Sequence record: OR352940.1
Origin: Escherichia phage AV110
DNA length: 64,000 nt
Reading direction: 5' to 3' (one strand)
Shown here in pieces: positions 29,478-58,073 of this stretch (positions are counted from its first letter, which is position 1; each line of letters begins with the position of its first letter). The notes below the pieces were generated by a model. That model had not been told where the DNA came from and did no database searches. It was given only the letters and a program-made list of their open reading frames with translations. A program made the position numbers and the translations under genes.

Positions 29478-29759
29478 TTACTTATCGCACTTAGCAACAT
29501 AATTAGGCATATCACAGAATACAGAGCGAGTAACTACTCGGCCCTTTGTCCATGCTTCAGTCGCTTGTCCGGCCGTGCTATTAATATAGCTTGATTTAAT
29601 GTTCTCAATACCTTGAGAATGTGATGCATTTACCGAACCATTGGAAGGCCCAGAAGACTGGTTACCACCAGCTCCTGCACTACCGCTGGCTGCACCCGTG
29701 GTAGCACCAACAGAGAATGTCATCATTACTGCGAATAAACCAATTGCTAATTTTTTCAT
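29478..29759 (-). CDS. secreted Gly/Ser-rich protein (93 aa) with signal peptide
   Basis: N-terminal MKKLAIGLFAVMMTFSVGA; late-promoter motif directly upstream. Confidence 0.55.
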   Translation of the reverse strand: MKKLAIGLFAVMMTFSVGATTGAASGSAGAGGNQSSGPSNGSVNASHSQGIENIKSSYINSTAGQATEAWTKGRVVTRSVFCDMPNYVAKCDK

Positions 29760-32898: not shown

Positions 32899-33201
32899 TT
32901 AGATAGATGTAGGCTCTAATTTTATTTTCATGAACTCGGCAAATTGTCTGGCAGTTTTTATGCCTTGTTCATGACATTCAAATGCATCATCACAGGGGCT
33001 ATTTTTGTAATGCTTTGCCATATACTTATAGAATTTTTCAGAATTCTCGACATTTTGAATTTCAAACAAAGTATATACGTTTTTAATCCCTGATTCCATA
33101 AAGTTATCAAAATATGGGTCAACATATGCAGTGCCAACAATAGGAGTTGTTGCTGCAAAAAACCCCAGCATCGCCATGACAGCTATCGCTCTTAAGGCCA
33201 T
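32899..33201 (-). CDS. secreted/periplasmic protein (100 aa) with signal peptide
   Basis: MALRAIAVMAMLGFFAATTPIVGTA. Confidence 0.5.
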   Translation of the reverse strand: MALRAIAVMAMLGFFAATTPIVGTAYVDPYFDNFMESGIKNVYTLFEIQNVENSEKFYKYMAKHYKNSPCDDAFECHEQGIKTARQFAEFMKIKLEPTSI

Positions 33202-34451: not shown

Positions 34452-34654
34452 TATTCTTCTACATGTTGTTTACGGCCTTTCTTATCAATAAAGGTATATT
34501 CAACGAATGTTCCAATGTAGTCTTTATCTACATCATGTGGACTATTAATTGGACATTTGGTACGACAAATGCGTTCCCATTGACGAATAATTACTGCCTT
34601 ATTCTTTGGGTCATATGGATGTGGATAATGTATATTCATAATAATGGTTCCCAA
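34427..34654 (-). CDS. hypothetical protein (75 aa)
   Basis: ORF. Confidence 0.45.
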   Translation of the reverse strand: MGTIIMNIHYPHPYDPKNKAVIIRQWERICRTKCPINSPHDVDKDYIGTFVEYTFIDKKGRKQHVEEYCLKVTWL

Positions 34655-35133
34655 TCAACAATCACAATTTCTAGTTTAGTGGAATACGTATCTAAAATCT
34701 CTTCGATGACATCCCAGTTTCCACCACCAATACCTGCACCAATTCTTGGCATATAAATTACAGGCTTTGTTATCTTATTCTTTCCGAATTCATTTAATTC
34801 TATTATACAATTCATTAAAGCAGAGTACTCAAAATTAGGTCCAGGCTCAAACTGCGTATAAAGATTAAAGCAATAAGCTTTATGGGTCTTAAAATATTTT
34901 TCATAAACCGAATAAGACCCGAGTTTAGACTCGTCTCCGAATTCGGTTTGAAGTTTATCGGCTTCTAAAATTTTTGGATAAGCCTTTGCTAATTGGCCTG
35001 CTACACCGGCGCCCATTGTATGAAAACAATTACACCCATGAGCAATATTATTACCTTTAGAAAACAGGGCGACAATATCGCCCTTGATATAGTTTTTAAT
35101 CACTTGCTGCAAGTCCTCTATTATAAGAGTCAA
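34636..35133 (-). CDS. macro-domain-like protein (ADP-ribose binding/processing fold)
   Basis: GDIVALFSKGNNIAHGCNCFHTMGAGVAGQLAKAYP and PRIGAGIGGGNWD parallel the two glycine-rich macro-domain motifs. Confidence 0.55.
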   Translation of the reverse strand: MTLIIEDLQQVIKNYIKGDIVALFSKGNNIAHGCNCFHTMGAGVAGQLAKAYPKILEADKLQTEFGDESKLGSYSVYEKYFKTHKAYCFNLYTQFEPGPNFEYSALMNCIIELNEFGKNKITKPVIYMPRIGAGIGGGNWDVIEEILDTYSTKLEIVIVDWEPLL

Positions 35134-35443
35134 CTAGACGGTCCACCATAGAATTGCATGCTGCCTTATCTTTAGGTTCCGCCACCGAGCATTCTAATAT
35201 TTGCCATTTTTTATAGTATCTTTTAATTAAGGTAGACGCCTTGAACCTACTAGACGCCCCATCTTTTTCTCCGTCTTTATACGCATATAACAATTTTTGT
35301 GAAAAATCTACTTTACACTCTTGACTTTTACCACAATAATCAGACGCCGTTCTGTTTGTATACTCCGTTACATCAGTATATGTAGTATTAGCAAGAGCGT
35401 TAAATGAAACCAAGCCAACTATTAAAGCCAACATTTTGGTCAT
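35096..35443 (-). CDS. secreted protein (115 aa) with signal peptide
   Basis: MTKMLALIVGLVSFNALA. Confidence 0.5.
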   Translation of the reverse strand: MTKMLALIVGLVSFNALANTTYTDVTEYTNRTASDYCGKSQECKVDFSQKLLYAYKDGEKDGASSRFKASTLIKRYYKKWQILECSVAEPKDKAACNSMVDRLVDSYNRGLAASD

Positions 35444-35982
35444 TCTTTTATTTCCAGTAGTTTATTTGATTTAAGGTAATTAGCCTTTTCTAGGACTTCA
35501 GAAGCATATTTACTTCCAGCACTTGTCTTCCATCCCGCATTATATGAGGATATAGCTTTTCTTATATCCCCGTTATGTATATTTAACCAATAAGAAAATT
35601 CAATATAAGCCCATCTGGCTGAATTAGACCGCTTAGATAGCATTTTCTTAATTTGGGCATCAGTCATATTATAACCAAGCTGGTTAATTCTTGCCCTCAT
35701 TGTTGGTAGATAATTTTGGAACATTCCATACGCATGGTGACCTTTCTTATCTTTAAGATTAATACCGGCAGATGATTCCTGCCATAGTATGGCGGCCATT
35801 ATGTATCCAAGTCCTTTCTTATGCATATTTTCATGCGTTTTAAATTTTCCGTCCTTAGAAAACTGTTCCCCAAACTGATAAGCATAATTCAAGTTATCGA
35901 GTTGGACATTACTAAAAGTATGCTCGGAGCTATGTGCTGATAACGAAAGAGCAAATAGACCAGCGAGTAGTGCTTTTCTCAT
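35440..35982 (-). CDS. secreted lytic transglycosylase-like protein (SLT domain) with signal peptide
   Basis: MRKALLAGLFALSLSAHS; SLT-like motifs LWQESS (catalytic Glu), YGMFQ, YNAGW. Confidence 0.6.
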   Translation of the reverse strand: MRKALLAGLFALSLSAHSSEHTFSNVQLDNLNYAYQFGEQFSKDGKFKTHENMHKKGLGYIMAAILWQESSAGINLKDKKGHHAYGMFQNYLPTMRARINQLGYNMTDAQIKKMLSKRSNSARWAYIEFSYWLNIHNGDIRKAISSYNAGWKTSAGSKYASEVLEKANYLKSNKLLEIKE

Positions 35983-35990
35983 GTTTACCT

Positions 35991-36449
35991 CTAGATTTTA
36001 ATCACTGCTTTAGAAGCTTTTCCTGGTAGTCGTTTACTGTTAATAATAGCCATTCTGCATTGAAGAGTCTTCATTTTGAATGCTGGATTTTCACGACAAA
36101 CTGTAAGACCTAACCAAAGATTTCCATCAGTTATTTCTAAACGGCCTGGGCGATATTCGACACCTTCGACAAAATCTTCATCAACATCTGGACGTGCCGG
36201 CATTGATAAAAATTCTGCAACTTCTTTAACATGATTTTTTACTTTATGAAATAATTCAAAAACGTAATTCTCATCTATTTCTCTCTGGATGGCACGATCT
36301 AAGAGATGTTGAGAATACTTGATATGAAAGCCTGGTAGTCCAAGAGACTTTGCAGCATCTTTTATACCGGCATTTATTTTGCGGAACTCCGTTTCAAAGA
36401 TTCGACGGAGTTTATTACGGCGGATAAAAACGTCTGAATTGATAGTCAT
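35991..36449 (-). CDS. regB: endoribonuclease RegB
   Basis: Start at MTINSDVFIRRNKLRR; 153 aa; closely matches T4 RegB as recalled. Confidence 0.85.
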   Translation of the reverse strand: MTINSDVFIRRNKLRRIFETEFRKINAGIKDAAKSLGLPGFHIKYSQHLLDRAIQREIDENYVFELFHKVKNHVKEVAEFLSMPARPDVDEDFVEGVEYRPGRLEITDGNLWLGLTVCRENPAFKMKTLQCRMAIINSKRLPGKASKAVIKI

Positions 36450-36510
36450 TTTGATTTCTCCTCTAGTTGTCATGTCTATAGTAACACAACTAGAGGAGAA
36501 GTAAACTACT

Positions 36511-40193: not shown

Positions 40194-40475
40194 CTATTTT
40201 TCTGAAGCGCCTGAAATATATTTTTCAAGACGTTGTTTCATTAGCGAGCCGTTCTTAGCGATTTCTTCCGGTTTATCGCACATACGCAACAAGGCTTCAA
40301 GCTTAGCGATATCGCTGGTACGTTCAAATTTGCGAGTATCTATCTTACTAGCAAGTTCAGAAATACGTGCTAATAGACTTTCGGCTTCAACCAAAGCTGC
40401 ACCTAGCTTAGTTGCAAATGTGTCAGTAGCTTCGTTAAGAATAGATTCTGATAAAAATTCACTATATGTTTTCAT
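40194..40475 (-). CDS. capsid-targeted internal protein
   Basis: Start trimmed to [13 protein letters not shown]; ATG overlaps lysozyme stop. Confidence 0.6.
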
Positions 40476-40960
40476 ATATACGCTTTCCAAGTTCCTGTTT
40501 TAAATGTTGAGATTACTCGTTTCGCGCGATTAGGTGTCTGACGATACCATTTAGATTGGGCTAGATTTACTGCCGCTTCATCCCAACGTTTCTGTTGAAG
40601 CATACGAAGAGAATTAGTAAAACCGGCGACGCCTGCTACACCCATTTGGAAGACCATATTGACCAATGCACAACGACGAACTGCATCTAAAGAATCATAC
40701 ACCGGTTTAAGTTTAGCATTACCCAAGATTCCGCGAACGGCTTTATCAACGTCTTCATTAAATAGCTTTTCAGCCTCATCAAGGGTAATTGTACCGTTGC
40801 ATTTACGGCCGATCATTCTGTCAAGTTCAGCTTTAGCTACGGCTAAAGACGGGTTCTTTGTTACTAAATGGCCAATGCCAATCGTCCAAAAGCCTTCAGT
40901 GTCTTTGTATAAAGTCAGTCTAAGACCTTCGTCATTACGAAGCATTTCAAATATATTCAT
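40472..40960 (-). CDS. e: endolysin (T4 lysozyme e homologue)
   Basis: Start at [32 protein letters not shown]; catalytic Glu/Asp context; close to T4 lysozyme. Confidence 0.93.
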
Positions 40961-56340: not shown

Positions 56341-58073
56341 TGGAAATGATTAGCAGTAGCCTTAATTGGTTCGTGGGTGTTGTCGAGGACAGAATGGACC
56401 CATTAAAACAAGGGCGAGTTCGAGTGCGAGTAGTTGGACTTCATCCCGCACAGAGAGTACAAGGCGACGTGCAGGGTATTCCTACAGAAAAACTTCCATG
56501 GATGACTGTTATTCAACCTATTACGTCTGCATCAATGTCAGGTATTGGTGGTTCTGTTACAGGTCCTGTTGAAGGAACTCGAGTATATGGTCATTTCTTA
56601 GACAAATGGAAAACAAACGGGATTGTACTTGGTACATATGGTGGAATCGTACGTGAAAAGCCTAATAGACTTGAAGGTTTTTCAGACCCGACAGGTCAGT
56701 ATCCGCGTCGTTTAGGTAATGATACGAACGTATTAAACCAAGGTGGTGAAGCTGGTTATTATTCGAACTCTAACGTAATTCAAGATAACAACTTGGATTA
56801 TGGTATAAACCCAGATGATACAGATTTAGCAAATATTCCAGAAGATGATGACCCTAATTTTACAATAACAGAAATGTTACGTCGTGATGAAGGTCTTCGT
56901 GATAAAGTGTATTGGGACCATCTCGGGTATCCTACAGTAGGTATTGGACACCTTATCGTAATGGAAAAGACCCGAGATATGTCTCGAATTAATAAATTGT
57001 TATCTGATCAAGTAGGGCGTGAAGTAACAGGAAATCCGGGAACTATTACATTAGAAGAAGCAACAGCGTTATTTGAGAAGGACCTTGCTAAGATGCAGAA
57101 AGACATTCGTTCTAATTCTAAAGTGGGTCCTGTTTATGCTAAAATGAACAGATCTCGCCAAATGGCATTAGAAAACATGTGCTTCCAAATGGGCGTTGGT
57201 GGTGTAGCAAAATTCAATACTATGCTTAAAGCAATGGCCGAAGGTGATTGGAAAACTGCATACAAATCTGGGCGCGATTCATTATGGTTCCAACAGACTA
57301 AAGGACGCGCTTCACGTGTAACAACAATTATTTTAACCGGTAACATGGAATCATACGGTGTTCCTGTTAAAACACCGCCTTCACCAGGAGTTGGTGCCGA
57401 TTTAGTTACTAGAAATACTGATTCAGAAGACCCGGCTGGTCCTCCTGTTCCATTAGATTCACGCATCCTTTTTAAAGAACCGGAATCAAGTTATCGTGGT
57501 GAGTATCCATATGTTCATGCTATGGAAACAGAAAGCGGTCATATCCAAGAATTTGATGACACTCCAGGTAATGAACGTTATCGTTTAGTTCATCCAACAG
57601 GGTCATATGAGGAAGTTTCTCCGTCTGGGCGTCGTACTCGTAAAACTGTAGAAGACCTTTTTGACATCACTAATGGTGATGGGAACTTCTTGATTTCTGG
57701 CGATAAGCTTGTTAACGTTGGTGCTAATGAAATATATTATAACATGGCAGACCGCCTCCATCAAATAGACGGCAATGACACAATCTTTATTCGTGGTAAC
57801 CAATCTAAAACTGTTGAAGGCGATGGAACTCTTTACGTTAAGGGTAATATCAAAATAGTTGTTGACGGAAATGCAGATATTCTTGTTAAAGGTGATGCTA
57901 AAACTCAGGTCGAAGGGAATCATGATTACACCGTCAACGGAAACGTTAAATGGACCGTTAATGGTAATGTTGATATGACTGTTGCCGGGGATTGGGCAGA
58001 AACAATGTCTACAATGAGCTCAGTAGCTTCAGGACAATACACTGTTGACGGATCTCGTATTGATATTGGGTAA
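56340..58073 (+). CDS. 5: baseplate hub / tail-associated lysozyme gp5
   Basis: 577 aa; OB-fold N-terminus, central lysozyme domain (TEMLRRDEGLRDKVYWDHLGYPTVGIGHL), C-terminal VxGxxxxx beta-helix repeats. Confidence 0.95.
   Translation: MEMISSSLNWFVGVVEDRMDPLKQGRVRVRVVGLHPAQRVQGDVQGIPTEKLPWMTVIQPITSASMSGIGGSVTGPVEGTRVYGHFLDKWKTNGIVLGTYGGIVREKPNRLEGFSDPTGQYPRRLGNDTNVLNQGGEAGYYSNSNVIQDNNLDYGINPDDTDLANIPEDDDPNFTITEMLRRDEGLRDKVYWDHLGYPTVGIGHLIVMEKTRDMSRINKLLSDQVGREVTGNPGTITLEEATALFEKDLAKMQKDIRSNSKVGPVYAKMNRSRQMALENMCFQMGVGGVAKFNTMLKAMAEGDWKTAYKSGRDSLWFQQTKGRASRVTTIILTGNMESYGVPVKTPPSPGVGADLVTRNTDSEDPAGPPVPLDSRILFKEPESSYRGEYPYVHAMETESGHIQEFDDTPGNERYRLVHPTGSYEEVSPSGRRTRKTVEDLFDITNGDGNFLISGDKLVNVGANEIYYNMADRLHQIDGNDTIFIRGNQSKTVEGDGTLYVKGNIKIVVDGNADILVKGDAKTQVEGNHDYTVNGNVKWTVNGNVDMTVAGDWAETMSTMSSVASGQYTVDGSRIDIG

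Follow-up and report, generated by a model that had tools for sequence, protein, structure and literature searches.

Two adjacent genes on the minus strand of Escherichia phage AV110 (sequence record OR352940.1), the orthologues of T4 vs.1 and vs, probably constitute an accessory, non-lytic, exported module for cell-wall remodelling, in which the small protein Vs would serve as the partner or modulator of the enzyme Vs.1. They lie in a stretch of 64,000 nucleotides, the whole of which we analysed and here call the window. Judged from its sequence, Vs.1 is a signal-bearing enzyme of the SLT/GH23 type, the third muralytic enzyme of this phage and a predicted non-lytic one. Vs, for its part, is the product of a gene that has borne the name "valyl-tRNA synthetase modifier" for 50 years, and this gene carries what looks like a conserved secretion signal and adjoins the gene for the apparently exported wall-cutter in most of the T4-like phages that we examined.

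Identity of the two genes

The vs.1 orthologue (35440..35982, minus strand) encodes a precursor of 180 residues, predicted to be an exported single-domain lytic transglycosylase, and the vs orthologue (35096..35443, minus strand) encodes one of 115 residues; a first-pass annotation of the window, made from the letters alone, had placed two open reading frames (ORFs) at just these positions. The 180-residue protein is 82% identical to T4 Vs.1 over its full length (T4p112, UniProt P13311 / Y06E_BPT4) and is matched over residues 1-178 by PHROG 600 ("unknown function"; E=3.7e-67), while the 115-residue protein is 68% identical to T4 Vs and is matched by PHROG 1256 ("valyl tRNA synthetase modifier"; E=1.8e-35). 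Precomputed assignments give the Vs homologues the Pfam family PF26829 (ValRS_modifier), and the annotation "valyl-tRNA synthetase modifier" is universal for the family in the records compared; an NCBIfam search returned no match for either Vs.1 or Vs. The 1.9 kb around the pair are 98.6-99% identical to the corresponding region of the Mosigvirus-type phages NBG1, APCEc01 and JS09, which identifies the source as a T4-like phage of the Mosigvirus group and the two ORFs as its vs.1 and vs. The local gene order, regB, vs.1, vs and tk.4, is common to T4, VR26 (Gaprivervirus) and the Klebsiella phage PWKp16.

Vs.1 is a predicted single-domain transglycosylase

The putative SLT/GH23 catalytic core of Vs.1 spans residues 59-172 (35467..35808, minus strand), with the predicted catalytic Glu69 (codon GAA at 35776..35778 on the minus strand, read directly), GMFQ at residues 86-89 and YNAG at residues 147-150. 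The first-pass annotation had singled out the motifs QESS, YGMFQ and YNAGW in this ORF, and all of them are present, the first as part of WQESS (residues 67-71), the others at residues 85-89 and 147-151. Across 39 diverse homologues, E69, S71, G86, Q89, N90, Y147, N148, G150 and Y159 are invariant, and the family thereby keeps the E-S, G-x-x-Q and Y-N-A-G motifs of the family-1 transglycosylases in invariant or nearly invariant form. The Pfam SLT profile (PF01464) matches this Vs.1 over residues 61-154 (E=0.0013; 18.8 bits, under the gathering score of 21.3) and 36 of the 39 homologues at E<=0.01, the best of them at 1.3e-7, and many homologues also carry a precomputed PF01464 assignment. When aligned by hhalign with E. 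coli Slt70, WQESS falls upon the catalytic motif RQESA and AYGMFQ upon ASGLMQ. The AlphaFold2 (AF2) model of Vs.1, with a predicted local distance difference test (pLDDT) score of 90.6, adopts the goose-lysozyme-like alpha-helical fold and is matched by Foldseek, at a probability of ~1.0, to a GH23 chitinase, MltD and Slt.

The precursor has a mass of 20.6 kDa and its predicted mature form comprises 162 residues (18.7 kDa, pI 9.6). Set beside the family-1 enzymes of Gram-negative bacteria (E. coli Slt70, MltC and MltE; P. aeruginosa MltF, Slt and MltD; GH23, PF01464), to which its sequence likeness is weak, Vs.1 differs in being a bare phage domain of 160 residues without superhelical, LysM or ABC-type modules or a lipid anchor. 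A search of 5.8 billion proteins recovered 128 homologues. Those with a named source come from T4-like phages of Escherichia, Salmonella, Citrobacter, Erwinia, Yersinia, Pectobacterium, Serratia, Pseudomonas, Acinetobacter and Aeromonas, the lone exception being a record labelled Acinetobacter baumannii that sits on a 169-kb, phage-sized contig.

The SLT likeness of vs.1 is in itself an already known observation: Nolan et al. 2006 reported a marginal SLT similarity for T4 and five relatives, citing earlier PSI-BLAST matches (PMC1524935), and several GenBank/UniProt records already name Vs.1 "SLT domain-containing". No study of the function of vs.1 came up in the searchable literature. The first-pass annotation had further set the exported transglycosylase apart from endolysin e and the lysozyme domain of gp5; both of these are indeed found in the window, e at 40472..40960 (minus strand) and gp5, with its Phage_lysozyme domain, at 56340..58073 (plus strand), and a distinct third enzyme is what the motifs, the profile, the predicted fold and the signal layout described below point to.

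Both proteins carry predicted Sec signals

N-termini were scored by a heuristic that looks for a positive n-region, an h-region of 10-15 residues and a small-x-small cleavage site within ~25 residues, which is a crude measure and not equivalent to SignalP. It is passed by 3 of the 169 ATG-initiated ORFs of at least 60 residues in the window, two of which are the adjacent vs.1 and vs; among the control proteins, T4 Spackle, which is known to be periplasmic, passes, and e, RegB and rI fail. The predicted signal peptide covers residues 1-18 in both proteins: in Vs.1 (35929..35982, minus strand) it reads MRKALLAGLFALSLSAHS and is followed by SE, with cleavage predicted at AHS/SE, and in Vs (35390..35443, minus strand) it reads MTKMLALIVGLVSFNALA and is followed by NT, with cleavage predicted at ALA/NT. 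Both N-termini have the n/h/c layout together with a small-x-small site. The 39 aligned homologues of Vs.1 all share the layout while differing in sequence, which is the pattern expected of a signal peptide. Vs.1 ORFs from the IMG/VR loci surveyed below pass in 62 of 70 cases, and the failures are mostly ORFs whose start is unlike that of the tblastn match or belong to two very divergent relatives on jumbo contigs. Vs fares still more uniformly, with 36 of 36 aligned homologues passing, as do 58 of 58 profile hits from the IMG/VR loci, and the residue before its predicted cleavage site is a nearly invariant Ala. The structure predictions are in keeping with this, the AF2 confidence being lower over the signal residues of Vs.1 (pLDDT 67-71) and falling to block-means of 48 and 53 over residues 1-20 of Vs, where residues 1-18 lie outside the fold.

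From these features we infer that both proteins are exported by Sec and cleaved, much as the first-pass annotation had supposed when it read a signal peptide on the 180-residue ORF and took its 115-residue neighbour to be exported as well. The searchable literature holds no mention of a signal peptide in Vs. We considered and rejected two other readings of these N-termini. A lipoprotein processed by signal peptidase II is contradicted by the lack of any cysteine in Vs.1, of any cysteine within residues 1-30 of Vs, and of a lipobox. A signal-anchor-release (SAR) sequence in Vs.1, which would need an uncleaved, weakly hydrophobic transmembrane segment of ~18-20 residues, is contradicted by a hydrophobic run of only ~13 residues (A4-A16) that leads into a canonical AHS/S site; a SAR lysis enzyme is also countered by the finding that e and t stay essential in T4.

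The third and only other ORF of the window to pass the heuristic encodes 93 residues (29478..29759, minus strand), begins with MKKLAIGLFAVMMTFSVGATTGAASGSAGAGG and is rich in Gly, Ser and Ala after the signal; its YbgS-like Pfam hit is sub-threshold (E=1.3e-4, 22.6 versus 27 bits).

Pairing of vs.1 and vs across T4-like phages

Our survey took in 70 IMG/VR loci with a gene for a relative of Vs.1. In 56 of them vs lies directly downstream of vs.1 (50 with a Vs profile hit and 6 with a divergent ORF), usually overlapping or abutting it; where the Vs profile hits, the gap ranges from -8 to +7 nt. The six divergent ORFs encode proteins of 105-118 residues with a signal peptide, at least four cysteines spaced in similar pairs and an Acinetobacter-type C-terminus. 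A further 8 loci have vs 0.5-1.2 kb downstream of vs.1, and the remaining 6, comprising Aeromonas-phage relatives and two jumbo contigs, have no vs near vs.1. Acinetobacter phages keep the pair even though the upstream neighbour there is a GIY-YIG gene and not regB. The searchable literature makes no mention of the pairing.

Several variants on the arrangement came to light. In loci L069-L076 (contigs of 142-180 kb) the Vs.1 relative is ~39% identical, and a Vs-like ORF is found 471-1216 nt downstream of it and not adjacent. T4-like phages of the Acinetobacter and Pseudomonas types have a third ORF of 137-147 residues with a signal peptide (for example MKLKAMLLSLLLVSPFASA, then the predicted cut and WEQ), which overlaps the end of vs (L056 2839..3252; L059 2830..3261; L062 2785..3210; L064 2770..3189; L051 2826..3269) and thus makes a run of three genes for predicted exported proteins: vs.1, vs and the third ORF. 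In the Aeromonas-phage relatives, an ORF of 146 residues with a lipoprotein-like N-terminus (MKKSIATLIAIGMYGC) occurs a few hundred bases downstream of vs.1 (L006 3868..4308; L066 3109..3549; L068 2856..3296; L077 3031..3471).

Vs is a phage-specific, predicted helical protein at odds with its name

The predicted mature form of Vs comprises 97 residues (11.0 kDa). Its AF2 model (pLDDT 86.6) contains four helices over residues 20-114, where the block-means are mostly 92-97. Across 36 aligned homologues the cysteines C37, C43, C85 and C96 are invariant and the C-terminal SMVDRLVDSYNRGL motif is mostly so. T4 Vs shares the four cysteines and the C-terminal motif, with no difference in kind; T4 Vs.1 likewise has the same signal peptide, motifs and position between regB and vs, and differs by sequence drift and by an overlap with vs of 8 nt in place of the 4 nt seen here. 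In the model, helices 1 and 3 carry a cysteine at their ends and helices 2 and 4 carry one in their first turns, so that all four would come to lie at the same end if the helices form an up-down bundle. They probably pair in two disulfides, the obvious interpretation if Vs is exported.

The family was found only in phages: an exhaustive profile search of 1.84 billion representative proteins yielded 8 small phage proteins and no cellular relatives. Pfam searches across the 36 homologues gave no recurring family, and a Foldseek search of the PDB with the Vs model gave no meaningful match (best E=1, probability <=0.35). A DUF1311 structure at rank 38 had no statistical support, and the idea of a lysozyme inhibitor of the LprI-like kind was dropped. 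Taken together, the predicted Sec signal, the four cysteines and the coupling to a putatively exported enzyme sit ill with the cytoplasmic function behind the name, and hence bring Vs into conflict with the annotation "valyl-tRNA synthetase modifier".

Fitness effects in T4

Fitness values for the T4 orthologues were drawn from Extended Data Table 6 of the HIDEN-SEQ preprint (10.1101/2025.11.20.689424), the side values from its sheets S8 and S9. There, vs.1 and vs are both classed as non-essential. Their insertion counts in liquid LB (26.6 for vs and 22.6 for vs.1) are nevertheless ~7- to 30-fold below those of their neighbours (179 for regB, 290 for tk.4 and 652 for vs.3). Upon the shift from LB to M9-glucose, vs shows a log2 fold change (log2FC) of -2.19 (q=0) and vs.1 one of -0.87 (p=0.0055, q=0.155). 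Upon the shift from K-12 to the clinical isolate CFE299, vs.1 is significantly depleted (-1.20, q=0.015) and vs changes to a similar degree (-1.04, not significant). Deletion of vs impairs plaque formation specifically in minimal medium. These data suggest, short of proof since vs.1 insertions may be polar on vs, that the two genes belong together, and they argue for a general growth benefit that is larger when the host grows slowly or is a wild one. The tables also give e a mean count of 2.5 and t one of 0, both being essential; as these genes are needed while vs.1 and vs are dispensable, Vs.1 cannot drive lysis or replace the endolysin.

Two other features of these tables may be recorded. 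Insertions in regB rise in M9 (log2FC +1.17, p=0.049) while the downstream vs.1 and vs are depleted, and in CFE299 strong depletion is seen for pseT (-5.27), nrdC.1 (-4.80), cef (-3.99) and cd.4 (-2.93) (10.1101/2025.11.20.689424).

Proposed mechanism and competing readings

In the mechanism that we favor, the 20.6-kDa precursor of Vs.1 would pass through Sec and lose its first 18 residues, which would leave in the periplasm a basic enzyme of 18.7 kDa made up of one lytic-transglycosylase domain of family 1 (GH23/SLT). If it works as Slt70 and MltE do, Glu69 would be its only acid/base catalyst, and the MurNAc-beta-1,4-GlcNAc bond of the host peptidoglycan would be cut non-hydrolytically to give a 1,6-anhydroMurNAc end. 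Vs would be translated from the overlapping start and exported as an 11-kDa helical protein, probably with two disulfides, and it would most likely act with Vs.1 in the periplasm, as partner or modulator. Although dispensable in rich medium, the module would aid the fitness of the phage, with a larger benefit in minimal medium and on one wild host at least. If Vs and Vs.1 do act together in this way, an old T4 puzzle would be explained, the name of the family would need correcting, and the pair would define a class of early wall remodelling, directed by the phage, that has to do with neither entry nor lysis.

Some parallels help to place such a module. EtgA, the specialised single-domain transglycosylase of the type III secretion machine of enteropathogenic E. 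coli, offers a candidate analogy for the partnership of Vs.1 with Vs, and VirB1, IpgF and P19 are further single-domain transglycosylases of secretion or conjugation machines. To our knowledge, no envelope-spanning machine is assembled early in T4 infection, and Foldseek of the Vs model against the PDB detected no similarity of Vs to EscI or any other solved protein. Among phage proteins, phiKZ gp144, the N-terminal domain of T7 gp16 and phi6 P5 are SLT-type virion entry enzymes or endolysins without Sec signals; unlike these, Vs.1 is early, non-essential and Sec-signal-bearing, and its phage possesses e and gp5 besides.

Several observations count against the exported module. On the side of the enzyme, the SLT score of this Vs.1 (18.8 bits) stays below the gathering threshold of 21.3 bits, searches of PDB sequences with Vs.1 alone and with its profile returned noise only (a metacaspase at E=0.06), sequence does not distinguish the chemistry of a lytic transglycosylase from that of a hydrolytic muramidase, and the searchable literature holds no enzymatic, localisation or cleavage data for any member of the Vs.1 or Vs families. 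On the side of the partnership, the effects of vs.1 insertions could be polar on vs, the clustered cysteines of Vs could form a zinc site instead of disulfides, and vs.1 occurs without an adjoining vs in the Aeromonas-phage relatives, which implies that Vs.1 does not strictly need Vs. The established account of Vs belongs here too: binding to valyl-tRNA synthetase is described, with citation of Muller and Marchin 1975/1977, in PMC8076793, and likewise in the HIDEN-SEQ preprint (10.1101/2025.11.20.689424).

That account underlies the competitor that survives best, and we think that it has a considerable chance of being right, if somewhat less than an even one. It equates Vs with tau, a cytoplasmic factor that would bind the host valyl-tRNA synthetase and stabilise it. 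The hydrophobic N-terminus of Vs would then drive no export or only inefficient export, the adjacency of its gene to vs.1 would reflect shared early expression alone, and Vs.1 would be by itself in the periplasm. Besides the reported binding, it draws on the universal annotation of the family, including the Pfam name of PF26829, and on the absence of vs beside vs.1 in Aeromonas-phage relatives. The defect of vs mutants is specific to minimal medium, where amino-acid supply limits growth, and a role in aminoacylation would account for it no less well than a periplasmic role; the effect in M9 is also stronger for vs (-2.19) than for vs.1 (-0.87). In the older literature, vs mutants are said to fail on hosts whose synthetase is temperature-sensitive; such an effect would be a cytoplasmic one in vivo. 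However, every Vs homologue keeps the signal layout while the N-terminal sequence drifts, as signal peptides characteristically do and binding surfaces do not, and AF2 places precisely these residues (1-18) outside the fold. The four invariant cysteines, and the tight, usually overlapping linkage to the gene of a predicted exported enzyme, which persists out to the Acinetobacter phages, likewise speak against a cytoplasmic protein. Purified tau is reported to have about the size of the predicted mature Vs (11.0 kDa); it would then correspond to the signal-cleaved form, which is ill-fitting for a purely cytoplasmic life. Further, T4 Vs that is expressed at full length and His-tagged at its N-terminus proves insoluble in the E. 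coli cytoplasm (PMC8076793), a behavior that fits, if weakly, an unprocessed secretory precursor. Between these poles we can entertain, as a tentative and on the whole unlikely possibility, the fuller claim that modifying the synthetase in the cytoplasm is not the job of Vs, or not its sole job, and that Vs is a Sec-exported, disulfide-stabilised periplasmic partner of Vs.1 in a conserved early wall-remodelling module for slow-growing or wild hosts, the complex of tau with the synthetase being secondary or forming after breakage of the cells.

Other functions for the exported enzyme or its neighbour appear improbable. The first-pass annotation had suggested that the transglycosylase serves superinfection exclusion, through an altered wall, or lysis timing, through a pre-weakened sacculus. 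Vs.1 is indeed predicted to be exported and is made early, T4 provides a precedent in the early periplasmic protein Spackle, which inhibits the gp5 lysozyme (PMC7677548), and the gene of the periplasmic antiholin rI lies at a distance of 2 kb (32899..33201, minus strand). Yet the suggestion comes without direct evidence, and a peptidoglycan-cutting enzyme should aid, not hinder, a superinfecting phage. In T4 these roles are already assigned to imm/sp and rI/rIII/t, the exclusion and lysis-inhibition functions belonging to Imm/Spackle and rI/t (PMC7677548). Moreover, vs.1 insertions lose fitness in ordinary competition, while rI and sp are neutral in the same HIDEN-SEQ data, and e and t stay essential where vs.1 and vs are dispensable. 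Neither part of the suggestion thus finds support.

We hold it to be just as doubtful that Vs is a periplasmic, immunity-like inhibitor of Vs.1 that prevents premature lysis, after the manner of lysozyme inhibitors or of Spackle acting on gp5. The tight linkage of an enzyme gene with a following gene for a small exported protein, and the harm done by deletion of vs, would suit such a role. Against it, vs.1 insertions should then be neutral or beneficial, yet they are depleted like vs insertions (polarity complicates this comparison), some phages carry vs.1 without vs, and Vs is unlike Spackle or any solved inhibitor. T4 Spackle (sp, gp61.3) does resemble Vs in its signal layout and is, as Vs is predicted to be, an early, small, Sec-exported periplasmic protein, one that acts on a muralytic enzyme (PMC7677548). 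An hhalign comparison of the two aligned only 5 columns, at a probability of 1%, and the Foldseek search of the PDB with the Vs model did not return Spackle; membership of Vs in a Spackle-like inhibitor family was accordingly rejected for want of any likeness in sequence, profile or fold.

Lastly, it is very improbable that Vs.1 is a hydrolytic goose-type muramidase, given the invariance of the family-1 transglycosylase motifs and, in the alignment of 39 sequences, the lack of a conserved acidic residue after Glu69 that could position water, or an inactive wall-binding protein, given the invariant catalytic Glu.

Transcription unit and neighboring genes

The genes regB, vs.1 and vs appear from the sequence signals to form a compact unit of three genes that runs from an early-type promoter to a hairpin after vs. 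The T4 orthologues vs.1 and vs belong to the early class by RNA and to the middle class by protein, both having been detected by mass spectrometry (PMC9697503 supplement), which agrees with the early expression that the first-pass annotation had assumed. The promoter-like site, read by eye upstream of regB (36478..36506, minus strand), consists of GTTTAC (36506..36501), a 17-nt spacer and TACTAT (36483..36478); it scores below the threshold of a consensus scan (9 of 12), which found nothing upstream of the unit, and a search for MotA boxes between regB and vs gave no match. The first gene, regB, encodes the site-specific endoribonuclease (35991..36449, minus strand; PHROG 1323; Pfam REGB_T4, E=7e-69). 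The REGB_T4 match begins at residue 11 of the listed ORF of 160 residues, and the true start is likely the ATG at 36449, with GAGGAG (36463..36458) ahead of it. The listed start, an ATG at 36473, lies 4 nt past the -10 hexamer, close to the expected start of transcription. The GAGGAG contains GGAG, the RegB cleavage motif according to a T4 annotation note, and RegB might therefore cut its own message.

A spacing of 8 nt separates regB from vs.1, which has a GAGG Shine-Dalgarno sequence, and the stop of vs.1 overlaps the start of vs by 4 nt (ATGA, 35440..35443, minus strand), so that the two genes are likely to be translationally coupled. The unit ends in a GC-rich, terminator-like hairpin, AGGGCGATATTGTCGCCCT, with a T-rich tail (35066..35084, minus strand), 12 nt past the stop of vs; the record of phage NBG1 annotates a 'terminator' at the same place.

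Patterns resembling MotA boxes (TGCTTNA, 10-14 nt, TANNNT) occur 15 times in the whole window, mostly on the minus strand, against 5.95 expected (standard deviation 2.4; none of 100 shuffles reached 15), one of them (34797..34822, minus strand) being located inside tk.4. The latter gene (34636..35133, minus strand) encodes a macro-domain protein (Pfam Macro, E=3.6e-6), whose T4 orthologue has recently been named AdfM, for anti-DarTG2 factor (10.1101/2025.11.20.689424). Its listed TTG start at 35133 overlaps both the 3' end of vs and the hairpin (35084..35066), which suggests that the real start is probably further downstream; the NBG1 product has 127 residues.

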